IMG/VR virus record: IMGVR_UViG_3300045988_147533
Location: 1 to 32,000 of that record
Source of the DNA: a virus
Direction: 5' to 3' (one strand)
DNA length: 32,000 nucleotides
Shown here: piece by piece, positions 9,036-31,315 of the stretch
Layout: each line of letters starts with the position of its first letter
Numbering within the stretch: the stretch's first letter is position 1
Program-made: the position numbers and the translations under genes
Notes under the pieces: model-generated
Databases searched by the model: none
What the model was told of the DNA's origin: nothing
The model's input: only the letters and a program-made list of their open reading frames with translations

Positions 9036-9838
9036 TACATCTTCATTCCTTTCGTGATTACAAAATTATTTGTTTTTTGTTTAGGTGCTACACTGTTCAG
9101 ATAAATTTCAAACTTAGATCCAAACAACGTGTCAGGCCTTAGATACTTGTTCATCTCTGTATCGTTTACCCATTCAGAAGCTTTAACATCAATCACAAGC
9201 TTAAAGTCTTCTAACCTGAATCCTTCATTCCATCTAGCATGAATCTTATCTCTAGCAATACGATTACTGTGTTTGTAATTCTTTGAACATTTAGAATTCA
9301 AGTAGTCAATAATTTCAACATAAGGGATTGTTTCTGATGCTGATAAATCAGTGTCGTCGGAACTTTCTTTTATATTTCTTTTATTATTAACTGTGTATAT
9401 AAATGTTTTATTAACTGTCTTACATTGGACAGATTTGTCTTTTGTACATTGGACAGATTTGTCTTTTGTACATTGGACAGATTCGGTAAATGCATTGGAC
9501 AAATTTGACCAATCGATAGATAAAGCATTTTTTAACTTTTCACCCATATTTCCAAATGCATACCAGCTTGTTTGATTCCAAGGATTTTCATTGTAATTTC
9601 CTTTGATAATCAAATCTTCATCAACCATTTTTTGAAGTATTCTTTGTATCTTTTTTTCACTCCAGTATGGAAATAATTTTTTAAATCCTTTTGCAGAATT
9701 AAACGTCCAATATTTTCCATCATGATAGTTGTTCTCATTTGCTTCATTTTTGTTGATCCAAAAACAAAACATATCAAATACAACAGCAACTTCAATGCCG
9801 TATTTGTCGGCTATTGCTATTTCAAAACTGTGTTTCAT
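9035..9838 (-). CDS. Phage replisome organizer / DnaD-like replication initiator
   Basis: C-terminus ...IIDYLNSKCSKNYKHSNRIARDKIHARWNEGFRLEDFKLVIDVKASEW...YLRPDTLFG resembles the conserved phage C-terminal (DnaD-like) domain; contains internal iterons. Confidence 0.75.
   Translation of the reverse strand: MKHSFEIAIADKYGIEVAVVFDMFCFWINKNEANENNYHDGKYWTFNSAKGFKKLFPYWSEKKIQRILQKMVDEDLIIKGNYNENPWNQTSWYAFGNMGEKLKNALSIDWSNLSNAFTESVQCTKDKSVQCTKDKSVQCKTVNKTFIYTVNNKRNIKESSDDTDLSASETIPYVEIIDYLNSKCSKNYKHSNRIARDKIHARWNEGFRLEDFKLVIDVKASEWVNDTEMNKYLRPDTLFGSKFEIYLNSVAPKQKTNNFVITKGMKM
9421..9507. repeat. Iterons (candidate phage ori) inside the replication organizer gene
   Basis: TACATTGGACAGATTTGTCTTTTG repeated exactly at 9421-9444 and 9445-9468, a partial copy from 9469, and a degenerate CATTGGACAAATTTG at 9493-9507. 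Encodes SVQCTKDK SVQCTKDK SVQC. Confidence 0.75.
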
Positions 9839-16867: not shown

Positions 16868-17965
16868 TTATAACAACTTATTCATCATATCTACAATGCT
16901 CTTGTCTTTTGTATCAAACCAGTGTGCATATGTATTGTGCAATGTTTCAACCGTGTCTCCTAAGCGCTTGGCTATATCAAAATCTGAGAATCCAGCTCCT
17001 GCCATGTTATTAATTAGGAATGATGCATGTGAATGTCTAAAATCATGAATTCTTATTTTAGGTAATCCATCATCTTTTTCTTTTGCCTTATTATATGCAT
17101 CATCAAATCTTCTTTGTACTGTCTGAGGTGATATTGGTTTATAATATCCAAACACGAATTTATCTTTTGTGAAATCATCCCATTTAGAACATTCTAAAAA
17201 CCATTCTCGAAGCATTTTAGACAATGTATTAGGCATTGTGATAGTTCTATAGCTATTGTTTGTTTTCGGTGGTGTAAGCCATTTATTAGGGTCTTTCTCT
17301 TTGTATCTGTATGTTTTGTTGATATCTATCGTTTGCTTCCTAAAATCAATGTCCTTCCATTGTAGAGCCATTGCTTCACCTTTTCGTAATCCCATATAGA
17401 ATAAAACAGAATAAAAACATTTCATCATTTGTTCATCTACTTCTTCAATAAATAAATCAAAATCATATTGCTGCCATATTGTCATTTCTTCTTTTCTTTC
17501 ATTCAATCTAAGATCACGTTTTACATATGTCATTGGATTGGTTGGAATGTATTCAGAAGTAACACCAAATTTATATAGCTTATTTAAAAAGAAATATATT
17601 CTTGATACGTATGCTTTTGAATATTTCTCATCAAATTTGTTGATCAAGTTTTGCATTTGTCTTTTATCTAGAAAATCAATATCTTTCATTTCCTTAGAAA
17701 GAACATTGTATAAATATTCATCTGATTTTAGCGTTGATTCTTTTACATACTTTTTATTATATTCTTTAAAAGCTTTATATAGTCTGTCAAAATTCATATC
17801 TGATGGAAGCATAAAGAAATCTTTCCTAAATTCAACCTCAGCTTTTTGTGCTTCCCATTTAGAATCAAAACCACGCTTACGATATCTCTTTATACATTTG
17901 CCATCTTTATATATTTTTCCAGCAAACATATATTTTCCTGTCTTCTTATCTAATTCCACTGCCAT
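16868..17965 (-). CDS. int: Phage tyrosine integrase (365 aa)
   Basis: N-terminal SAM-like/arm-binding region; RKGEAMALQW (Arg), HDFRHSHASF (H-x-x-R), LGDTVETLHNTYAHW (Tyr). Confidence 0.9.
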   Translation of the reverse strand: MAVELDKKTGKYMFAGKIYKDGKCIKRYRKRGFDSKWEAQKAEVEFRKDFFMLPSDMNFDRLYKAFKEYNKKYVKESTLKSDEYLYNVLSKEMKDIDFLDKRQMQNLINKFDEKYSKAYVSRIYFFLNKLYKFGVTSEYIPTNPMTYVKRDLRLNERKEEMTIWQQYDFDLFIEEVDEQMMKCFYSVLFYMGLRKGEAMALQWKDIDFRKQTIDINKTYRYKEKDPNKWLTPPKTNNSYRTITMPNTLSKMLREWFLECSKWDDFTKDKFVFGYYKPISPQTVQRRFDDAYNKAKEKDDGLPKIRIHDFRHSHASFLINNMAGAGFSDFDIAKRLGDTVETLHNTYAHWFDTKDKSIVDMMNKLL

Positions 17966-18003
17966 TTTTTGTGCCCTCTTATATGTCCATAATATGCAAA
18001 AAA

Positions 18004-18051
18004 GGGGTATAATTCAATATTTTAATATCAAATTATACCCCAATATACCCC
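18004..18051. promoter_or_regulatory. Repeat cluster in the lysin-integrase gap (candidate attP arm/core sites)
   Basis: Inverted repeat GGGGTATAATT (18004-18014) / AATTATACCCC (18031-18041); direct ATACCCC at 18035 and 18045; a related GTACCCC near 18203. Confidence 0.4.
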
Positions 18052-18060
18052 AAGGCAAAT

Positions 18061-18084
18061 AAAAAAGCCTTTAAATAAAGGCTT
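18061..18084 (-). terminator. Terminator of the late/lysis transcript
   Basis: AAGCCTTTA...TAAAGGCTT hairpin, followed on the minus strand by TTTTTTATTT. Confidence 0.65.
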
Positions 18085-18275
18085 AAATTTCAATGGAGCA
18101 GATGAGGGGATTATATAAATACCTCATATCTATTGATATTTGATGTTATTTACATCGTTATCTACGTGTTTTGATAACACTTTGTTGTTTTGTACCCCAA
18201 AATGTACCTCACTGCTTCACGCAAGAAAGATAATACAGTATAAACTATATTATGTCAAACACTTTTTGAATTTTT

Positions 18276-19352
18276 TTATTGAACCTCAATCAATGGGCCA
18301 CAGTTTACCCAAACTCCGCCAATCTTTGCAAGATTCTTTTTCACATTGACTTCATCCACACGAATACGTGTTACATATACAATTGCATTTGTGGTGTGTA
18401 ACACATTGTCGTTATATCCGTCTGAGTTTGGCACTTTGTCGACCAATCGAATTGGAAACCAACCGCCTAATTGAGATAAGTAACAACATAAATCATCACC
18501 AATCTTTTTCAAGCCTTGGTTGCCAATTTTCATATGTACAGATGTAACATAGCTACCTTTATGCAAAATTTGGTCGATAGCTTCTGCGCTAGACTGTGTG
18601 GCGCCAACTGGCACATGAGGGTCTGTATCGATACCAGCATCATTAGTCCATCCAATCGCTACTCCATTACGATCAACACGATATGGATATTTTGTTCCTT
18701 TAATTACTCTACCAATGACACCTGACCAATCACCTTTTTTAACTGTAGAAGTTCCGTAGCAATTCACACTCAATGTGTTTGTACAGATAGGTAAATTAAC
18801 TGAATATTTTTCTCCACTTGGAGTTGTAGGTTTTGGTGTTTCAACCTTTCCATCTAACTTTGCATTTACTTCATTAGCCAATTGTGGCATACGTGCTTCC
18901 AACCATGCTCCAGGGCATGATGTAGCCGCAAACATTTTGTGCATAGTCAATGATCCGCTAGAATTTCCTGTATAGTTCAATCTAAATCCATATCGTTTAC
19001 AAATATCAACACATAGATTCACCAAGCTATCCCAAGTAGCTTGCGTCATTTCTCCAGTTGCGTTATTAATGTTTCCACATTCAATCGTAATTGATTGAGA
19101 ATCATTCAACCAATTTGAACTTGTCCATGCAGCATTTTCTTCATCAACACTGCATGCAATGTCTCCATTAATTCCAATACAATAATTGGAAGATGCTTGA
19201 CGAGTATTTCGTGCAAAATAATCTGCACATTGTTTACCACTCCATGCCGCAGCCATGTAGTGTGGAGTGATTTTACAAATCTTATATCCAAAACGACCAT
19301 CATAATGTTGTGATGTTCTGTTACAATATGTTGCTAATCCGGAATACGACAT
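18276..19352 (-). CDS. Endolysin: N-acetylmuramoyl-L-alanine amidase (Amidase_2/PGRP-like) with C-terminal SH3-like wall-binding region
   Basis: ...ASSNYCIGINGDIACSVDEENAAWTSS...SITIECGN...LTMHKMFAATSCPG follows the amidase_2 pattern; position next to the holin. Confidence 0.75.
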   Translation of the reverse strand: MSYSGLATYCNRTSQHYDGRFGYKICKITPHYMAAAWSGKQCADYFARNTRQASSNYCIGINGDIACSVDEENAAWTSSNWLNDSQSITIECGNINNATGEMTQATWDSLVNLCVDICKRYGFRLNYTGNSSGSLTMHKMFAATSCPGAWLEARMPQLANEVNAKLDGKVETPKPTTPSGEKYSVNLPICTNTLSVNCYGTSTVKKGDWSGVIGRVIKGTKYPYRVDRNGVAIGWTNDAGIDTDPHVPVGATQSSAEAIDQILHKGSYVTSVHMKIGNQGLKKIGDDLCCYLSQLGGWFPIRLVDKVPNSDGYNDNVLHTTNAIVYVTRIRVDEVNVKKNLAKIGGVWVNCGPLIEVQ

Positions 19353-19447
19353 TCTTCATCTACACCTTCTTCCTTGCCATTGCTTAATTCTTCTTTTGCT
19401 TCTTCTGATAGATTCTCATAATCTACTACTTTTTCTTCATCATTCAT
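19334..19447 (-). CDS. Small acidic ORF (37 aa) between holin and endolysin
   Basis: ATG 3 nt after the holin stop with GGAGGA SD; MNDEEKVVDYENLSEEAKEELSNGKEEGVDEECRIPD; ends 19 nt inside the lysin gene. Confidence 0.35.
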   Translation of the reverse strand: MNDEEKVVDYENLSEEAKEELSNGKEEGVDEECRIPD

Positions 19448-19449
19448 TA

Positions 19450-19677
19450 TTATTCCTCCGGTACACTAATTTCAGGTAATCCGCCAATACTAGTCAGCAA
19501 CGAGACGATGCCTGACAAAACCGCTGACGAAATTACAACTCGCCAATCAACGGCTTCCAATAATGCAGATGCTCCAATAACACCAACAGCAGTTTGAGCA
19601 ATTGTCTTTAATGCTCTAATACTTGCGTAATAGCCATATTGAATCCACCATTCTTTACTATATTTTTTCATTTTCAA
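19450..19677 (-). CDS. Holin (75 aa)
   Basis: Two hydrophobic segments, charged C-terminus, immediately upstream of the endolysin. Confidence 0.7.
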   Translation of the reverse strand: MKMKKYSKEWWIQYGYYASIRALKTIAQTAVGVIGASALLEAVDWRVVISSAVLSGIVSLLTSIGGLPEISVPEE

Positions 19678-19750
19678 ATACCTCCTATCCTAATGATAGT
19701 ATTTAAATCGTTTGTACACTGTACAAAATAAAAGACCGTATTTAACGGCC

Positions 19751-20233
19751 TTATTGATACATATTAAACATGTCTCGTATATGTGTCTTAATCATTGTTT
19801 TTTCTTCATCTGAATCAACGCATCCATGAATCATAGTTACGATTTGTTGCATACATTTCATAGTCTTATCTAATTCACGATGAGACTTTTCCAAATCCAT
19901 CTCACCTTTTGTACGCAAATATTCTTCTTTGAACGCTTTATATTTTTTCAAATGTTCTGCAAGCTTATAAACAATATCTTCTGTTTCTGGATCATGAATA
20001 TTATATCCATCATTATCTTCTTTTAATCGGGCTACAGTTGAAACTCCATCTTTTCCTATCTCAATTTGATATTTATTTCTCATTGCTTCTATAGTTTCGA
20101 TATCTTTGATATTATCCAAAGCTTGAGATAATGCATGGAAATAAGATTCTGCATATCCATATTTCTCTAACATGTTCACTGACTCATGCATTATCTTTTC
20201 ATTAACTTCCATTGCTTTATGCATATATTTCAC
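19751..20233 (-). CDS. Hypothetical helical protein (160 aa)
   Basis: Start abuts the stop of 20234-20653. Confidence 0.7.
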   Translation of the reverse strand: MKYMHKAMEVNEKIMHESVNMLEKYGYAESYFHALSQALDNIKDIETIEAMRNKYQIEIGKDGVSTVARLKEDNDGYNIHDPETEDIVYKLAEHLKKYKAFKEEYLRTKGEMDLEKSHRELDKTMKCMQQIVTMIHGCVDSDEEKTMIKTHIRDMFNMYQ

Positions 20234-20653
20234 CTACGCAATCTTTTTAATGATAATGTTTGCATTTTGAACAGATAGATCTAAACCACTGTTATTTGCT
20301 AATGCAATTGTATAAGATGCACCACATGGAACTTGAATTAGAGTGTCTCCACTTACATTTCCATACGAACTTGCAGTTGCAACAGTATAAATAGATTGTG
20401 TTCCACCAATTGCTTCTCCGTTTAGTTCAAGCACTAAAGAAGCTTGTCCTGCCACTGCACTCGTAATATCCGCAGTATAAGTTACTTCATAGATACCTGG
20501 CTTTGTTAGTGTAAACAATCCACTTCCTAGATCATGTGCCAACCATCCTTTACATGGACACTGGCAGGATTTTGATCTTACACGATCTGTAGGAAACAAT
20601 ACATTATTTGAATTATCGACTGTCTGAACAGTCGTAGCAATACTATTAATCAT
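20234..20653 (-). CDS. BclA C-terminal-domain-like (C1q/TNF-like jelly roll) protein without a collagen stalk
   Basis: FTLTKPGIYEVTYTADITSAVAGQASLVLELNGEAIGGT...SVQNANIIIKKIA parallels B. anthracis BclA-CTD (FVISETGFYKITVIANTATASVLGGLTIQVNGVPVPGT...GTSASIIIEKVA). Confidence 0.65.
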   Translation of the reverse strand: MINSIATTVQTVDNSNNVLFPTDRVRSKSCQCPCKGWLAHDLGSGLFTLTKPGIYEVTYTADITSAVAGQASLVLELNGEAIGGTQSIYTVATASSYGNVSGDTLIQVPCGASYTIALANNSGLDLSVQNANIIIKKIA

Positions 20654-20677
20654 TTATTTTATCCTCCTATTAAAATA

Positions 20678-20699
20678 GGGATAGCCTTTCGACTATCCC
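20678..20699 (-). terminator. Hairpin after the 210-aa gene; a second 12-bp palindrome lies at 20711-20722
   Basis: GGGATAG / CTATCCC followed on the minus strand by TATTTTAATAGG; AGGCAATTGCCT palindrome next to it. Confidence 0.45.
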
Positions 20700-20740
20700 G
20701 TTAAATCCAAAGGCAATTGCCTAATCACATATGTGCTAGA

Positions 20741-21373
20741 TTATAAGTTGTTGTAGCCATTACATCCACATCCGTTGTTGTAAGCGTAATATGGTGAACA
20801 TGTAATGTAAGCTGGTTTTGGTGTTGGTTGCAAAGTACTAATGATATTTGCTGATTGTGCCTGTTGACTTAATTGGAAATTAGCTGTCAATAAATCACGG
20901 TCACGAGCAGCTAAACGATCACGTAATTCTTGCATAGTGTTTGCATTGATCAACGCACGTGTAGCTTCACCTTCTGAATGAATTGCTGTTGTAATGTCAC
21001 AAGTATTTTTGAAACTTTGAGCATTTACATTGTCAATTGCACGTTGTGTGTTGCAGCAACATTCTTGTTGCTGAGCTTGCAAGTTTTGAAGTCCTAACTG
21101 ATTTTCATAGCGACTTTCTAATACATCACGTTGAGTTTGACAACCTGTTTGAGATACATTTGTGTTTGTGTTAAAAATGTCTCGTTTAATGAATTCTTCA
21201 TTTAATAAAGAATCGTTTGCTAGGTTTCCGTTGCCATATCCTCCATATCCTCCATATCCAAATAATACGAAGATTAGCAAGATCCAAATCCACCATCCTC
21301 CGCCGTTTCCAAAGCCGTCATCTCTTTCAGCTAAGTTGTAAGTTGGTTGAATTCCCATTCCATTTTCCATCAT
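20741..21373 (-). CDS. Membrane protein: Gly/Tyr-flanked TM segment, Cys-rich coiled coil, Cys/Gly/Asn/Tyr C-terminus (210 aa)
   Basis: GFGNGGGWWIWILLIFVLFGYGGYGGYGNG (reminiscent of YjcZ-type sporulation peptides), CCC motif, C-terminal CSPYYAYNNGCGCNGYNNL; AAAGGAG SD. Confidence 0.7.
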   Translation of the reverse strand: MMENGMGIQPTYNLAERDDGFGNGGGWWIWILLIFVLFGYGGYGGYGNGNLANDSLLNEEFIKRDIFNTNTNVSQTGCQTQRDVLESRYENQLGLQNLQAQQQECCCNTQRAIDNVNAQSFKNTCDITTAIHSEGEATRALINANTMQELRDRLAARDRDLLTANFQLSQQAQSANIISTLQPTPKPAYITCSPYYAYNNGCGCNGYNNL

Positions 21374-21414
21374 ATATGTTCTCCTTTCTTTCTATAATAA
21401 CGGTTTATCCGTTG

Positions 21415-21657
21415 TTACCTGATTCCGAATTGTTTTGCCATTTGTTGAAGTTGTTGCTTTTGTTGTGGATTTAAATTACCCATCATCTGATTTAAAATCA
21501 TTTGTGGATTTTGGCCACTGTTCATAAGCATTTGAAATTGTTGAAATGCTTGTGGATTTTTCTGTGATAGCATATTCATTAACATTTGTTGGGGATTTCT
21601 CATATTCATCATATTCATTGGATTCATATTACCCATAATACTTTTTAAAGGATTCAT
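21415..21657 (-). CDS. Met/Asn/Gln-rich NPQ-repeat protein (80 aa)
   Basis: Repeats NPMNMM / NPQQMLMNM / NPQAFQQFQML / NPQMILNQMM / NPQQKQQLQQM; 4-nt overlap with the upstream gene. Confidence 0.6.
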   Translation of the reverse strand: MNPLKSIMGNMNPMNMMNMRNPQQMLMNMLSQKNPQAFQQFQMLMNSGQNPQMILNQMMGNLNPQQKQQLQQMAKQFGIR

Positions 21658-22103
21658 TTTGTTTGTGCTCCTTTCTTTGGTTGCTCATTGGCTTGTTTTG
21701 GTGGTTTGCTTAATGCACATATCAAATCATCTAATTTCTTTTCGATTCCATTTACACGATTTTCAATACTGTTAGAATTATCTTCCGTGATTTCTTCAAA
21801 TTTAAATTTTTTAAATGTTCCATCTAAAGATTTCATATAAAAAATAGATTTATTGTTATCAAATAAAATCGTTGGTAAATTTGCATTCGCAAAGTTTCTA
21901 GCTTCCTGCTCATCGTTCACCCATTTTCCATTAAAATCAAAATTACCTTGTTGTTGTGGTGTAATCTGATTATTAATATTGATAGGTGGAATATTTGCAT
22001 ACTGTTGTACTTGCTGAATTTGTTGATCTATCATTTGCCTTTGCTGCATCAAGCTGTCAATTCGTGCTTGTGCTGGATTATAATTGTTATACATTTCAAC
22101 CAC
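21654..22103 (-). CDS. Protein with Gln-rich N-terminus (149 aa), hypothetical
   Basis: AAGAGGTGG SD; first gene after the 22183-22206 terminator. Confidence 0.7.
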   Translation of the reverse strand: MVEMYNNYNPAQARIDSLMQQRQMIDQQIQQVQQYANIPPININNQITPQQQGNFDFNGKWVNDEQEARNFANANLPTILFDNNKSIFYMKSLDGTFKKFKFEEITEDNSNSIENRVNGIEKKLDDLICALSKPPKQANEQPKKGAQTK

Positions 22104-22182
22104 CTCTTTACGATTTAATTATATGTTTACGTAATAAATAATTTAATACTCGAATAATACTCATAAAATACCCAAAATAAAA

Positions 22183-22206
22183 TGAGCAACCATTATAGAT
22201 TGCTCA
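22183..22206 (-). terminator. Terminator after the sigma-r4-like gene
   Basis: TGAGCAA / TTGCTCA, followed on the minus strand by TTTTATTTTGGG. Confidence 0.5.
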
Positions 22207-22426
22207 CATATTTATCGAACATTTTTCTTGCTTTGCATACTCTGTTCCTTATGGTTTGTACTTCCATATGTAATGCATCTGCAATTTCGGTACATGACAT
22301 GTCATATACGTATCTCATAATCAAAACCTGTTCATATTTCTTTCTTAATCCAACAGACTTGATAAGTATTAATGCATCATTAGGACGTATCTCTTTTAAT
22401 CTGTTAGCTTTGTTAATATAAACCAC
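22193..22426 (-). CDS. Sigma-70 region-4-only HTH protein (77 aa)
   Basis: LRKKYEQVLIMRYVYDMSCTEIADALHMEVQTIRNRVCKARKMF has a typical region 4.2 pattern; too short to be a full sigma factor. Confidence 0.6.
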   Translation of the reverse strand: MVYINKANRLKEIRPNDALILIKSVGLRKKYEQVLIMRYVYDMSCTEIADALHMEVQTIRNRVCKARKMFDKYVSNL

Positions 22427-22434
22427 CGCCTTAA

Positions 22435-22668
22435 TTAAATTCGTTGGTTTGAATTAGCTTCGCAAGAACAATTATTCACATGATCATCTTTCCAATAACC
22501 ACGACAAACAATAGTAGAATAAAGAACAATAATCACTAAAACCAATACTGTAATAATCGTTCTACTTGTTTTATAGTTTCGATCAATTAATTTTGAACAA
22601 AAACCATAAATGTTATCTACTTTTTCTTCTACATTTTGAAGTTTCTTGTTTGCATCTTTAATATCCAT
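22435..22668 (-). CDS. Coiled-coil plus single-TM protein (XhlA-like topology)
   Basis: N-terminal coiled coil, then TM TIITVLVLVIIVLYSTIV. Confidence 0.55.
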   Translation of the reverse strand: MDIKDANKKLQNVEEKVDNIYGFCSKLIDRNYKTSRTIITVLVLVIIVLYSTIVCRGYWKDDHVNNCSCEANSNQRI

Positions 22669-22951
22669 TTTTATTACGTTCCTCCAACGCTTCTACACGA
22701 TTAAACAAAGTTTTTATTTGTTGTTTTAGTTCTGAAAGCTCCACTTCCATTGAATTGCTTCCTTTTTTTATTTCTGAAATTGAATCTTTAATATCACCTA
22801 AATCCGATTTAATATGTTCCAATTCATTCTTCAAAAATGCCATATTGGATATTTGCTCTCCATCCATCTTGCGGGTGCCACGATTATACGTAATAAATGC
22901 AATTACAAGCATGCATGCAGAAATAATAACACTAAGATATTCACCGCTCAT
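22658..22951 (-). CDS. N-terminal TM plus coiled-coil membrane protein (97 aa)
   Basis: YLSVIISACMLVIAFITY TM followed by a heptad-like region. Confidence 0.6.
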   Translation of the reverse strand: MSGEYLSVIISACMLVIAFITYNRGTRKMDGEQISNMAFLKNELEHIKSDLGDIKDSISEIKKGSNSMEVELSELKQQIKTLFNRVEALEERNKNGY

Positions 22952-22962
22952 AGAAACACCAC

Positions 22963-23085
22963 CTATTTATTAACGATAGAATTTTTTTGTTCTACACTAA
23001 TCCATCCAATAGAAGCAAAAATTTCTAAATCATTATTTGTAAATAAACCTAATTCATAATACGATTTGATTAATTCATAACTCAT
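22963..23085 (-). CDS. XkdX-family small phage protein (40 aa)
   Basis: Hand-translated MSYELIKSYYELGLFTNNDLEIFASIGWISVEQKNSIVNK, which fits the XkdX pattern (YY.LGLWT..DL..FV..G.IT.EQY). Not in the track. Confidence 0.6.
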   Translation of the reverse strand: MSYELIKSYYELGLFTNNDLEIFASIGWISVEQKNSIVNK

Positions 23086-23086
23086 A

Positions 23087-23428
23087 CTACTTCACCCCAT
23101 TCAATTGAGCTTTTAATTGAGCGATCTGTAACATTAATTGTGCATTAATCTTATCTTGCTCAGTTGGTACTGCTTTTGGTTCTGTGATTGTCGGCTTATC
23201 TTCTTCTGCAACCTCAACCACTTTGCCTTCTACAAATCTATAATTGTATCGACCTTTTTCATCAACTAATCCTTTTTCTAGATACTGGCTTTGTGCATGT
23301 GCGTATTTATCTCCTTGTCCCTTATCAATCTCTGTCATTGTGTCCATTTCTTCTTGTGATAAAAAAATTTCTGAATTAATAGATGTAATGTTATTTTCTG
23401 AATCTTTATTAATATATACTCTTGCCAT
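23087..23428 (-). CDS. Hypothetical tail-fibre-associated protein (XkdW position)
   Basis: Synteny between the fibre gene and the XkdX-like gene. Confidence 0.6.
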   Translation of the reverse strand: MARVYINKDSENNITSINSEIFLSQEEMDTMTEIDKGQGDKYAHAQSQYLEKGLVDEKGRYNYRFVEGKVVEVAEEDKPTITEPKAVPTEQDKINAQLMLQIAQLKAQLNGVK

Positions 23429-23439
23429 GTCTACTTCTC

Positions 23440-24366
23440 CTATTCATCATCATAAATTTCTGCGTCTAATTCTATAGTTCCGCCTACGTTGCAATTTCCA
23501 ATCTTGCTTGTCACAGCTTGAATAAGCAATGTAAGATCTTTCACGGTAGTGTTTAATGAAACAACGGCTTTTGATAAACCGGAGTTAGAAGTATTTGCAA
23601 AGTTTACTGTTGGTTTAATTCGCATGCTTGGAATTGTGTCTGAGAATATGTATGTAAAGCTTGCACTACCGGAATAGAATACATAATAGTAATATCTTTT
23701 AATGTAATATCTCTGACACTTAATTAATTCATCTGCATAACTTGGAGCAACAAATGTTGTTGCTACTTTACCTTTTTCCAATTTAATCCATTCAATTGTG
23801 CATGCTCCATTCTGTGATGTAGTACCAAATCTGATAATACTTAATGGAGCACTTGAACCATCAAGTGTTAATGTATGGATTCCGTTTGTTTTGATTTCTT
23901 TTTTTCCAATAAGCGCGTTTTCGCCTAGAAGGCTAGTACCTCCTTCTTTCATAGCTTCAAGTCTAAACGAACCTACAATAGAAGATACTTTTACTGATAT
24001 TGTAAATTCTTCATCTAATTCATTTTCTAAGATTTGGCTTATGTAATTCTCTAAAGTTCCTAAAGAATTGGTTGTTGTGCTTCCGCCTGTATAGCTTATC
24101 CCATTACCTAATTGCTTTACTGTTGTATTATAAATTTTCCATCTATCAAATGAATAATCTGTTTCGTTGTACGCTGTAAACCCACGTTGATTTACTTTGA
24201 AATCCGGATTAATCAATAAATTCGGATTACTGAATTTAGTTCCTAAATAGTCTGCTAATTGTGTTAATGTACCTTTTTTTAGTCCAAATCCATTATGTAC
24301 GGGTAATAAACTTGTATCCGTGAAGTTATACAATGCATTTAATTCCGTAACTTGTTTTCCTGCCAT
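23440..24366 (-). CDS. Tail fibre / receptor-binding candidate (308 aa)
   Basis: N-terminal ...VTELNALYNFTDTSLLPVHNG...LTQLADYL typical of fibre N-termini; position at the end of the tail module. Confidence 0.6.
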   Translation of the reverse strand: MAGKQVTELNALYNFTDTSLLPVHNGFGLKKGTLTQLADYLGTKFSNPNLLINPDFKVNQRGFTAYNETDYSFDRWKIYNTTVKQLGNGISYTGGSTTTNSLGTLENYISQILENELDEEFTISVKVSSIVGSFRLEAMKEGGTSLLGENALIGKKEIKTNGIHTLTLDGSSAPLSIIRFGTTSQNGACTIEWIKLEKGKVATTFVAPSYADELIKCQRYYIKRYYYYVFYSGSASFTYIFSDTIPSMRIKPTVNFANTSNSGLSKAVVSLNTTVKDLTLLIQAVTSKIGNCNVGGTIELDAEIYDDE

Positions 24367-24384
24367 GTTATTCCTCCTTGAATT

Positions 24385-24531
24385 TTATTCTGCAAATTCA
24401 ATCAATCCGTTTTTCTGTTCTTCTGTGATTTTATTTTTTTTATAAGCTTGATTAACTAAGAAAATGAAACTGTCTTTGTCATATTTTCCTTCGATAACTC
24501 TTTTCTTTTGGTTATTCAAAATCCTGTACAT
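24385..24531 (-). CDS. Small ORF (48 aa), second XkdX-like candidate
   Basis: MYRILNNQKKRVIEGKYDKDSFIFLVNQAYKKNKITEEQKNGLIEFAE (...KITEEQ... motif); 20-nt overlap with 24512-24700. Confidence 0.4.
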   Translation of the reverse strand: MYRILNNQKKRVIEGKYDKDSFIFLVNQAYKKNKITEEQKNGLIEFAE

Positions 24532-30517: not shown

Positions 30518-31315
30518 TTATTTCTCCCTATAATTACGTATAATTTCTGCACGAATAGCACCAATATCTGTTGTGATCAATACATTATTTGAACCATAAT
30601 TAAACTTAATCCCATCAAACGAACCACTTGTTTTCAATGTGTCATATTTATACGTTCCATTTTTATAATATGTTTTCATATAAGAACTTTCCGTATTGAT
30701 TTCAACATAAGAAATATCCGATGTACCGTTAAAAGGATTTGTGATTGTAAAATTATTTCCATTACAATTGATCGTAATGTTTTTTGCGTTCATGGAAGTG
30801 TTATATAAGCGATAGATTGGATATGCTGTTTCATAATAATTCGCAAGTTCTACCTTTTTTCCACTTACAATATCGTATGGCCTTGAATACTTATTTACGT
30901 ATCTGTAAGGTTCACAAATAAATGTGATTGTAAATTCACTTCCTCGTCCAAAATCTCTTGAATCCATATCAAACGTTACATTTTTTACCTTCCAATAATG
31001 TTCTCTATCATCACTAGTTAATTCTAATATTCCTTTATTTCCATTAAAATATTGTTGGATTTTATAGATACGATCTAGATATTCTTTCTTGCTATTTAAA
31101 ACAAAGTTGCATTTAACAGGAATTTTGCGATCTTGATATACACCTGTATGACGATACGATGTAGTACCGTCACCAAGTGTAGATGTTTCTACAATTTCCT
31201 CTGCCATAGGAATAACAGGACGCTCACTTACCTTTAATAAATACATAATATTTTGCGTATAACGCAGTTTATTTTCAGGTGTAAATCTAAAATGATACAT
31301 TCTATGAACCTCCAT
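30518..31315 (-). CDS. Distal tail protein (Dit, siphovirus tail component)
   Basis: Size and position between TMP and Tal; N-terminus FRFTPENKL...SERPVIPMAEEIVETSTLGDGTTSY fits the Sipho_tail pattern. Confidence 0.75.
   Translation of the reverse strand: MEVHRMYHFRFTPENKLRYTQNIMYLLKVSERPVIPMAEEIVETSTLGDGTTSYRHTGVYQDRKIPVKCNFVLNSKKEYLDRIYKIQQYFNGNKGILELTSDDREHYWKVKNVTFDMDSRDFGRGSEFTITFICEPYRYVNKYSRPYDIVSGKKVELANYYETAYPIYRLYNTSMNAKNITINCNGNNFTITNPFNGTSDISYVEINTESSYMKTYYKNGTYKYDTLKTSGSFDGIKFNYGSNNVLITTDIGAIRAEIIRNYREK

Follow-up and report, generated by a model that had tools for sequence, protein, structure and literature searches.

The late operons of PBSX and SPbeta of Bacillus subtilis end in the gene order xkdX-xepA-xhlA-xhlB-xlyA, and xepA of PBSX is a non-lytic accessory gene situated between the tail-fibre and the lysis genes. 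Lambdoid Stx phages have the order Q-pR'-tR'-stxAB-S-R-Rz. Exosporium proteins assemble in the mother-cell cytoplasm without signal peptides, and knobs of the C1q/BclA type cap fibres in other systems. Small activators of the PhoB type, acting at pho boxes, and Alt of TP901-1, acting at P-late, replace the −35 element by way of tandem direct repeats, and GerE, a protein of 74 residues, is region-4-like. Here we compare with these systems a block of six genes on the minus strand at positions 19751–22426 of a stretch of viral DNA (positions 1–32,000 of IMG/VR record IMGVR_UViG_3300045988_147533; this whole stretch of 32,000 nucleotides is referred to below as the window). The block is best explained as one copy of a self-contained, portable, self-regulated and non-essential accessory operon that encodes a membrane-anchored, cysteine-rich protein together with cytoplasmic partners.

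The core proteins and the system as a whole found no functional match in Pfam, NCBIfam, PHROGs, PADLOC, the PDB, BFVD or the searchable literature, in agreement with an earlier note on this DNA, which knew of no described system of this composition. Literature searches on BclA or C1q-like proteins of phages and prophages, on DUF7841, on phage-encoded exosporium and on Holdemanella prophages returned nothing relevant. Four of the six to eight module proteins belong to no characterised family, and by profile comparison the recognisable elements are parts only: a helix-turn-helix (HTH), a BclA_C fold, one domain of unknown function (DUF) and an XhlA-like architecture. We therefore rate the system as outside the known kinds, though an accessory operon under a late activator follows a familiar general logic of phages. 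The carriers are phages of Erysipelotrichaceae, Lachnospiraceae, Clostridiaceae and Oscillospiraceae.

Gene order and position of the module

The listing of open reading frames (ORFs) in the window contains all six minus-strand genes exactly where the earlier note had placed them, and the hairpins among them and the flanking holin and amidase genes are likewise where it had described them. In gene order they are g77 (22193–22426, 77 residues), g149 (21654–22103, 149 residues as listed), g80 (21415–21657, 80 residues), g210 (20741–21373, 210 residues), g139 (20234–20653, 139 residues) and g160 (19751–20233, 160 residues as listed). Ribosome-binding sites and the gene calls in close relatives make ATG 22094 the most likely start of g149 and ATG 20224 that of g160, which would shorten the products to 146 and 157 residues, respectively. 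The G+C content of the module is only slightly raised (0.36 against 0.30–0.33).

In order to follow the block in other phages, about 100 loci from IMG/VR, GTDB genomes, GenBank phages and metagenome contigs were assembled, and their ORFs were searched with iterated hidden Markov models (HMMs) of the window proteins. The order g77-g149-g80-g210-g139-g160 is preserved throughout these loci, and each ORF has hundreds of conserved homologues arranged in this order, more than chance would give. The earlier note had made co-occurrence beyond this phage its own test, and the genes occur together in 13 lineages once the approximately 100 loci, referred to here by L numbers, are collapsed so that lineages lie below 70% g210 identity. 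With narrow HMMs, g149 is found upstream of g210 in 11 of the 13 lineages, and g139 and g160 are found downstream in seven and six of them, respectively; where these models miss, a small Met/Gln-rich ORF can still be seen on the gene maps in the interval from g149 to g210, and the last place is taken by a helical protein. The gene for g77 lies directly upstream of g149 in 70 of the approximately 100 loci, and region-4 HTH genes fill its slot in L103, L003 and L094. The wider module thus reads, from its upstream end, as an XhlA-like transmembrane (TM)/coiled-coil gene, a region-4 HTH gene, g149, a gene for a small Met/Gln protein, the TM/Cys-rich g210, a BclA_C-like β-sandwich gene and a gene for a DUF7841 helical protein. 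The closest of the distant copies, on a human-gut contig of about 50% G+C (MT837318), has the full series, including the XhlA-like gene and an HTH protein of 66 residues.

Some lineages vary the downstream half of the module. In five of them an unrelated, Cys-rich β-type protein of 118–149 residues that belongs to no Pfam or PHROG family replaces g139 (L107:5681–6040, L098:8720–9097, L100:4359–4808, L101:8601–9014 and L009:6834–7190); four of the five replacements have 6–11 Cys and an N-terminal C-x2-3-C motif, and that of L009 has 4 Cys. Modules of the Lachnospiraceae and C. perfringens types contain an extra protein of 175–197 residues (phrog_17879), absent from the window, between the β-sandwich gene and the last helical gene (L003:4604–5197, L094:9378–9971 and L107:6618–7145). 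The accessory genes of other lineages, namely those for the 197-residue phrog_17879 protein, for proteins of 61–79 residues and for the Cys-rich β proteins, obtained no function from Pfam, PHROGs or NCBIfam. The impression that the 197- or 175-residue protein is ferritin-like found no support in any model and is not claimed.

The position of the module differs widely from phage to phage. It precedes the holin gene in the window and in L005, the latter with a different, CHAP-type lysin, it lies between the holin and a GH25 lysin in L109, and it follows the lysin in L103, L105 and Butyrivibrio phage Ceridwen. In L094, the prophage of an isolated Coprococcus comes strain, it occurs with its XhlA-like gene and HTH gene between the genes for minor capsid protein 2 and the scaffold, and in C. 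perfringens phages CPD1 and PMQ04 it is found among early genes (Bro-N, Gp157, recombinase). By our own count about nine of 15 arrangements adjoin lysis genes. Since the slot thus ranges from the surroundings of holin and lysin to the head-gene cluster and the early genes, the comparison indicates that the module moves as a unit between phage genomes. The description of the block as inserted inside the lysis region is accordingly true of the window and does not hold as a property of the module, which occupies other slots elsewhere. A gene of the AgrB family (quorum-sensing peptide-processing membrane protease) stands directly upstream of the module, after the endolysin gene, at L105:8561–9130, and another lies at the edge of its locus about 4.8 kb upstream of the module (L108:1–181).

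The operon also occurs in reduced form. In-frame deletions have fused g149 to g139 in two independent cases (P0225, and P0283 at L108:5001–5603), g149 to g160 (P0318) and g77 to g139 (P0394 at L109:5001–5492), and the contigs that bear these fusions otherwise look like complete phages. The fusions point to frequent decay or remodelling of the operon, and because the deletions occur in otherwise intact phage contigs the module is accessory, with no essential virion or lysis function. Terminators, portability and dispensability, as in morons, are present here, and the promoter is deduced from sequence alone.

Module proteins and putative control region

Conservation across the loci marks g210 as the defining gene and the most conserved member of the module. 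Its product has a single short hydrophobic segment (residues ~27–40) flanked by Gly/Tyr in a G/Y/W/F-rich setting, followed by C-x-TQR repeats, a long helix (residues 118–174), a Pro-rich stretch and a Cys-rich C-terminus, with 8 Cys in all. Invariant Cys, Pro and Gly columns run through the alignment of the family, and homologues in public metagenomes number 5,426 clusters at 90% identity (E ≤ 1e-3), none of which has a Pfam domain or a name. The protein belongs to phrog_16490, which has no assigned function. The YjcZ likeness that had been proposed for the Gly/Tyr-flanked segment is compositional only, as no match to YjcZ or tiny-TM families was obtained at E ≤ 1 in Pfam or ≤ 0.1 in NCBIfam.

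The product of g149 is rich in Q/N/P/Y/G/M over residues 1–52 (63%), and its AlphaFold2 (AF2) model has a mean predicted local distance difference test score (pLDDT) of 71, rising to near 90 in the core at residues 56–100. The predicted structure consists of a Q/N-rich N-terminal helix, a compact β-α-β3 core and a C-terminal helix. Foldseek comparison of the model with the PDB gave a best E of 0.12 and none below 0.1; the best resemblances to small domains, all with E > 0.1, are to oligomerisation modules such as the trimerisation domain of collagen XVIII. In BFVD the same search retrieved only uncharacterised gut-phage proteins with machine-made names, from siphovirus, myovirus and podovirus contigs. 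The g149 profile comprises 159 clusters at 50% identity. A protein of 587 residues with four weak matches to the g149 core was rejected on inspection as an unrelated tandem-repeat protein. The start of g80 overlaps the stop codon of g149 in an ATGA at 21654–21657, so the two are translationally coupled, and natural g149::g80 fusion proteins exist (P0271 and P0269). The g80 product is a helical-repeat protein of which 65% is M/Q/N/P, and a small M/Q-rich ORF occupies its slot between g149 and g210 in all lineages inspected. The impression that g80 is a Met-rich client-binding or metal-binding protein lacks support from any model and is not claimed. For g149, g80 and g210 the composition that the earlier note had read from the letters, a Gln-rich N-terminus, a Met/Asn/Gln-rich protein and a Gly/Tyr-flanked Cys-rich protein, is borne out by the values given above.

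The g139 product begins directly with a β-sandwich of the BclA C-terminal/C1q-like type. Its match to BclA_C (PF18573) is just over threshold (residues 3–139; E = 6.8e-11, 42.6 bits, cut-off 38), which substantiates the similarity that had been noticed, and phrog_20016 is matched at 5e-18. Most close homologues are already annotated with PF18573, a near-identical relative is named 'BclA C-terminal domain-containing protein' at NCBI, and the more distant module members score about 26 bits (26.6), below the cut-off. Conserved features are a C-x-C-x-C motif near residue 30, an invariant H40 and G43-S44-G45, and a C-terminal ANIIIKK. The protein contains neither collagen GXX repeats nor an exosporium-targeting leader, and collagen repeats were not found in any of 179 g139 homologues, all of which are about 137–143 residues long apart from the deletion fusions. 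The last gene, g160, encodes an all-helical protein that an iterated HMM ties to the same-slot genes of 83 loci. The same-slot genes of L103, L105 and L009 match DUF7841 (PF25223) at 1e-29, 9e-21 and 2e-8 (103, 75 and 35 bits; cut-off 25.2), whereas g160 of the window is not detected by the Pfam DUF7841 model and the iterated HMM did not reach the L103, L105 and L009 genes; the link between g160 and DUF7841 therefore rests on position and helical build.

None of g149, g80, g139 and g160 has a hydrophobic N-terminus resembling a signal peptide, and all four contain low-complexity or Cys-rich parts. Sequence-profile searches of the PDB with the g149, g160, g210 and g139 families gave nothing significant, the g139 profile reaching no PDB chain. 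PADLOC had no match for g77, g80, g210, g139 or g160, and its hits to g149 and x97 (see below) were coiled-coil noise only.

Immediately upstream of g77 on the minus strand lie two further small genes, which the earlier note had assigned to the lysis region. The 77-residue product of x77 (22435–22668) has an N-terminal coiled coil, a C-terminal TM segment more hydrophobic than any other segment in the region (H17 = 3.0 at residue 38) and a short Cys-containing tail with a weak FeoB_associated Cys-rich match (0.018); the gene is limited to the close, Holdemanella-type lineage. The 97-residue product of x97 (22658–22951) has an N-terminal TM segment, whose hydrophobicity peaks at residue 5, and a coiled coil at the C-terminus, as in XhlA/BhlA-like proteins. 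It matches phrog_1863 (4.3e-7) and the 'hemolysin' family phrog_937 (1.4e-4), with no Pfam XhlA match, and its equivalents in L094 (0.0022, 18.6 bits) and L003 (0.019, 15.5 bits) match Pfam XhlA below the cut-off of 34.7 bits. An XhlA-like gene of the x97 kind accompanies the module into the head-gene clusters of L003 and L094. The coiled-coil/TM pair is thus present as described, but these two genes probably belong to the module and not to the lysis genes, and x97 is probably the first gene of the module.

The g77 product matches the Pfam family Sigma70_r4_2 (2e-10, 40.6 bits, cut-off 25.7), in keeping with the region-4 similarity reported earlier, and lies just under the cut-off of Sigma70_r4 (22.7 against 24.1 bits). 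The match is confined to residues ~26–75, which align to the last ~50 positions of ECF sigma models in NCBIfam. PHROG matches are to phrog_1740 (sigma factor) and to the Q-like phrog_79 (1.5e-5), and Phage_antitermQ is matched below its 26-bit cut-off (2e-4, 21.7 bits) over the HTH part only (model positions 64–110). Because region 2 is absent from the 77-residue protein, g77 is predicted to be a region-4-type HTH DNA-binding protein and not a sigma factor; of the "sigma-like factor" proposed at first, the region 4.2 HTH stands. A phmmer search of the window with a phage region-2 ORF as query returned no homologue, though the stretch of this phage near the terminase falls outside the window; a split sigma factor within this window was therefore dropped. 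The prophage of Coprococcus comes MSK.16.63 (L094) has a 106-residue ORF of sigma-70 region 2 only (L094:1269–1589, 3.4e-14) upstream of the terminase genes, and its module carries a region-4-only protein. This region-2-only ORF suggests the idea that g77 might be the region-4 half of a two-subunit phage sigma factor.

Three terminator-like hairpins punctuate the minus strand of the operon; their folding energies were compared with those of shuffled sequence. The first, at 22182–22207, overlaps the g77 stop codon and has a 10-bp stem and a T-run (−15.2 kcal/mol, z = −4.5). Between g210 and g139, a 12-nt palindrome (~20711–20722) is followed by a strong terminator-like hairpin (20678–20699) with a 9-bp stem, five GC pairs and a T-rich tail (−20.3 kcal/mol, z = −3.0). 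The two hairpin sites of the earlier note, 22183–22206 and 20678–20722, thus do fold better than shuffles. The third hairpin, at 19732–19752, closes the module upstream of the holin gene (−11.6 kcal/mol, z = −4.6). The region 18000–24500 contains nine terminator-like sites against 2.4 expected, and nearly all lineages have a hairpin with a T-run ahead of g149.

Between the first hairpin and g149, three direct repeats GRGTATTW are spaced by exactly 11 bp (22144–22173, minus strand), the proximal copy lying at about −40 to −33. They are the only tandem array in the 32-kb window and a candidate array for g77 binding; in the scan 0.9 two-copy matches were expected at ≤2 mismatches and 5 was not reached in any of 100 shuffles; for the triple repeat, comparison with shuffled sequence gave p = 0.004. 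A −10-like hexamer TATAAT (22118–22123, minus strand) with no recognisable −35 hexamer lies 24 nt upstream of the g149 start codon, with a ribosome-binding site in between. It was read by eye from the sequence and is kept in close relatives, and a consensus promoter scan that required both hexamers did not call it. Other lineages share the layout of HTH gene, hairpin with T-run and phased repeats of another sequence. The repeats occupy the same position in L077 (p = 0.002), L091 (0.009), L107 (0.002), L082 (0.025) and L055 (0.024), and, as examples, the L055 type has TTGACATT, Lachnospiraceae types have TGATACTT and C. perfringens phage PMQ04 has TTACNTTT. We infer from this layout that g77 is the dedicated activator of the operon at a putative −35-less promoter. 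The g77 gene itself lacks a promoter-like site of its own in the window; it comes after the tail and XhlA-like genes, on the late strand. As the last gene of the late/tail transcript it would switch the operon on after the late genes, which suggests a "very late" transcription unit.

Flanking genes and host

Downstream of the block lie the holin gene (19450–19677; Phage_r1t_holin 1.9e-11, 44.3 bits; PHROG holin), the amidase endolysin gene (18276–19352; Amidase_2 6.2e-17, 62.6 bits; PHROG endolysin) and, after the endolysin, the integrase gene (16868–17965). Holin and amidase border the module and are not members of it. Upstream, the ORF at 22963–23085 that had been called XkdX-like does match TIGR01669, but at 21 bits, below the 28.2-bit cut-off. 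It is preceded by a tail-fibre gene (23440–24366, phrog_4492), which shares the stretch 23087–24366 with a gene for a conserved protein of 113 residues (phrog_24451), and further upstream by a gene for a Dit protein (30518–31315, phrog_33). Because this Dit protein is present, the tail is assigned to the siphovirus type and not to a PBSX myovirus layout, and the virion is predicted to be siphovirus-type despite the small XkdX-like gene; the PBSX-type frame in which the locus had been set is given up.

Several other features of the neighbourhood were recorded. A very acidic ORF of 37 residues (19334–19447, minus strand) is situated between the holin and endolysin genes, shares 19 nt with the start of the latter and is kept as an ORF in 25 related loci. 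A perfect palindrome, TTGTACAcTGTACAA, is found at 19712–19726, between the g160 terminator and the holin ribosome-binding site. No other exact copy exists in the window, and the palindrome has the look of an operator ahead of the lysis genes. As a g77 site it was dropped, since it has this single copy and does not resemble the repeats that precede g149. The 15-mer TTGTACATTGGACAG occurs twice in the early/lysogeny region, at 9442–9456 and 9466–9480, 24 bp apart, and both copies have a TTGTACA half-site in common with the palindrome upstream of the holin gene. Just downstream of the integrase gene, a drum RNA (RF02958; 16615–16726, minus strand; 74.8 bits, gathering score 43) adjoins a skipping-rope RNA (RF02924; 16513–16611, minus strand; 57.9 bits, gathering score 36.7). 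These two structured RNAs are orphans, here within a prophage.

Exact-sequence look-ups found relatives of the integrase, g210, g139 and g77 in Holdemanella biformis and H. porci and in many 'Caudoviricetes sp.' contigs; WP_302129787.1 and WP_302129786.1 are among the Holdemanella biformis relatives. By these matches the window is assigned to a siphovirus-type prophage of Holdemanella biformis, a gut bacterium.

Possible functions and likeness to described systems

The module probably has a role at the cell membrane late in infection, and we tentatively lean towards a membrane-associated complex active at the time of lysis or immediately after it. In such a scheme g77 would be made at the end of the tail/late transcript, bind the candidate repeats and switch on g149, g80 and g210, and partial read-through would then give expression of g139 and g160. 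The g149 protein, with its coiled coil and small oligomerisation-type core, and the coupled, sometimes fused, Met-rich g80 protein would aid the assembly of g210, which would be anchored in the cytoplasmic membrane and whose Cys-rich coiled coil would hold C1q-like trimers of g139 together with the helical g160. The complex would be an egress accessory at the membrane, neither a part of the virion nor a spore-surface module, and could tune the holin-dependent disruption of the membrane or alter the debris and membrane that the progeny phages meet. A lysis-stage membrane role is favoured because the module lies near holin and endolysin in three different orders, because XhlA-type proteins travel with it and because its timing, as read from the gene order, is very late.

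Several points weigh against this scheme. No experiment and no homology ties any of the core proteins to lysis. That g210, g139, g149 and g160 form a complex is a conjecture, and AF2 modelling of g210 with 22 homologues failed to give a confident fold (pLDDT 45). The topology of g210 is ambiguous, as K/R counts favour an N-in orientation and a by-eye reading of several divergent homologues favours the opposite; both flanks of the segment are acidic, and close relatives dominate the positive-inside result. Both the promoter and g77 binding are deduced from the letters of the DNA only, and phased repeats reach p < 0.05 in just seven of 23 upstream regions. The L094 module sits in a head-gene cluster, the early-gene setting in the C. 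perfringens phages means that late expression is not assured everywhere, and the neighbourhood of lysis genes is the usual landing place for morons too.

The last point leads to the possibility that the module is a lysogenic-conversion moron, expressed from the prophage under its own regulator and altering the membrane or envelope of the host, for example in superinfection exclusion at DNA entry or another fitness trait. We regard this as a rather less likely function. The regulator, the promoter-like region and the terminators would all suit a moron, as would the inclusion of a membrane protein, the repeated deletion of a non-essential block, the variable slot, usually at the lysis or integrase end where morons gather, and the presence of the unrelated accessory AgrB gene adjacent in L105 and L108. 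On the other hand, the regulator gene stands behind tail and XhlA-like genes without its own promoter-like site, the C. perfringens carrier phages show no integrase in the stretches inspected, PADLOC found no match, and five to eight genes are many for an exclusion function. It is unlikely that the proteins are virion-associated, with g139 as a trimeric knob and g149 as a coiled-coil stalk of head or tail fibres, or as decoration or assembly factors. The module does directly follow tail-fibre genes in the window and lies between head genes in L094 and L003, knobs of this type are known from fibres, the nearest PDB resemblances of g149 are oligomerisation modules, and structural operons typically have terminator hairpins behind strongly expressed genes; yet the slot varies and includes early-gene regions, the BFVD relatives of g149 come from all three virion types and so appear independent of any one of them, the most conserved member is a single-pass membrane protein, deletion derivatives occur in apparently complete phages, and no module protein has a structural annotation in PHROGs. 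Similarly doubtful is a new "very late" system in which the region-4-type activator would drive abundant synthesis of Cys-rich and low-complexity (Q/N/M/Y/G-rich) proteins; lining the inside of the membrane, these would assemble by themselves into a cross-linked coat or matrix with C1q-type knobs at its tips. Released by lysis, it would shield or aggregate the progeny or mask receptor-bearing debris, a logic that may be likened to that of the exosporium or of the very-late matrix of baculoviruses.

We give somewhat less credence still to g77 as a Q-like antiterminator or late lysis regulator that lets RNA polymerase pass the three hairpins and reach the holin and endolysin genes, with the intervening genes as unrelated passengers like stx in Stx phages. 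The Phage_antitermQ and phrog_79 matches, the terminator immediately after the regulator gene, the two more before the holin and the fact that only a weak promoter was called for the holin are what such a regulator would leave; but the Q match is under its cut-off while that to Sigma70_r4_2 exceeds its own. The HTH gene accompanies the module in L103, which has its lysis genes upstream, and in L094, which has none nearby, and the supposed passengers are syntenic across the 13 lineages. The earlier note had also proposed remodelling of the spore surface. In such a case mother-cell expression would furnish the spore coat or exosporium with a BclA-like knob and with proteins rich in Cys, Gly/Tyr and Gln. 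The BclA_C domain of g139, a Cys-rich partner and proteins without signal peptides, as for exosporium proteins, an HTH of GerE size, weak and non-significant matches to CotZ (0.28) and YppG (0.013) and a version of the module in phages of C. perfringens, a sporulating host, can be cited for it. Against these, the module is present in Ceridwen, a phage isolated and grown on Butyrivibrio fibrisolvens, which is not known to sporulate, and none of the 179 g139 homologues has a collagen stalk or targeting leader. BclA_C is the only coat or exosporium family of Pfam and NCBIfam with a significant match among the genes of the window and of other lineages. The host of the window itself, as represented by Holdemanella biformis DSM 3989, is an ethanol-sensitive Former-Spore-Former (PMC8340488, Additional file 2, Table S3). 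Because the host has lost sporulation, a carrier infects Butyrivibrio, g139 is without stalk or leader and other coat families are not matched, spore remodelling is unlikely, with a small chance left for sporulating hosts such as C. perfringens, and we put it well below each of the alternatives above.

A conserved, portable and self-regulated operon at this scale points to a common step in gut Firmicutes phages beyond the models of holin, endolysin, virion and lysogeny. Cultured carriers exist, namely Butyrivibrio phage Ceridwen, several C. perfringens phages and Holdemanella and Coprococcus comes lysogens, and so do natural deletion derivatives. Even if the function should be modest, a switch made of an HTH protein and phased repeats would add a 'post-late' class to the transcription of Gram-positive phages.

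The membrane protein g210 may be compared with the i-spanin Rz, which has a TM segment, a coiled-coil ectodomain and intermolecular disulfides. Both carry a single hydrophobic segment at the N-terminal end, long helices and conserved Cys, and both are Pro-rich towards the C-terminus and often encoded beside holin and endolysin; g210 differs in the absence of sequence similarity, in its ambiguous topology and in the lack of a lipoprotein partner, no small lipobox-bearing ORF being seen in or beside the module in the ORF list and gene maps. Its host is moreover monoderm, Erysipelotrichaceae not being known to have an outer membrane. The exosporium nap and basal layer of the Bacillus cereus group and C. 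difficile (BclA with ExsFA and ExsY/CotY; CdeC/CdeM) resemble the module in the BclA C-terminal fold, in a Cys-rich partner and in the lack of signal peptides, by which the module too would assemble in the cytoplasm, and differ from it in that g139 has no collagen stalk or targeting motif, that g210 is unrelated to ExsY, CotY and CdeC in Pfam and NCBIfam, and that the host no longer sporulates.

The end of the PBSX/SPbeta late operon shares with the locus a (weakly) XkdX-like gene, membrane proteins of XhlA/BhlA-type architecture (N-terminal TM segment and coiled coil), a holin, an amidase and a non-lytic accessory slot between the tail-fibre and lysis genes, which holds xepA there and the module here. 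The module contains no XepA-like protein, has six genes with an HTH regulator and promoter region in place of one gene, occurs also away from lysis genes and is accompanied here by a siphovirus-type tail. With PhoB, Alt and GerE the locus has in common a small protein consisting of an HTH only and direct repeats with an 11-bp period over the −35 of a putative promoter with only a good −10, whereas g77 matches ECF-type region 4.2 and not the OmpR/PhoB or GerE/LuxR models. The lambdoid Stx phages and morons offer a similar arrangement of small regulator, terminator and accessory genes without export signals upstream of lysis genes; the products would be made late and freed by lysis, and the block is non-essential and portable. 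In the Stx phages, however, the regulator is Q, which g77, with its region-4-type HTH, matches only below cut-off, the module products are not toxin-like, and the phased repeats here point to activation rather than antitermination.

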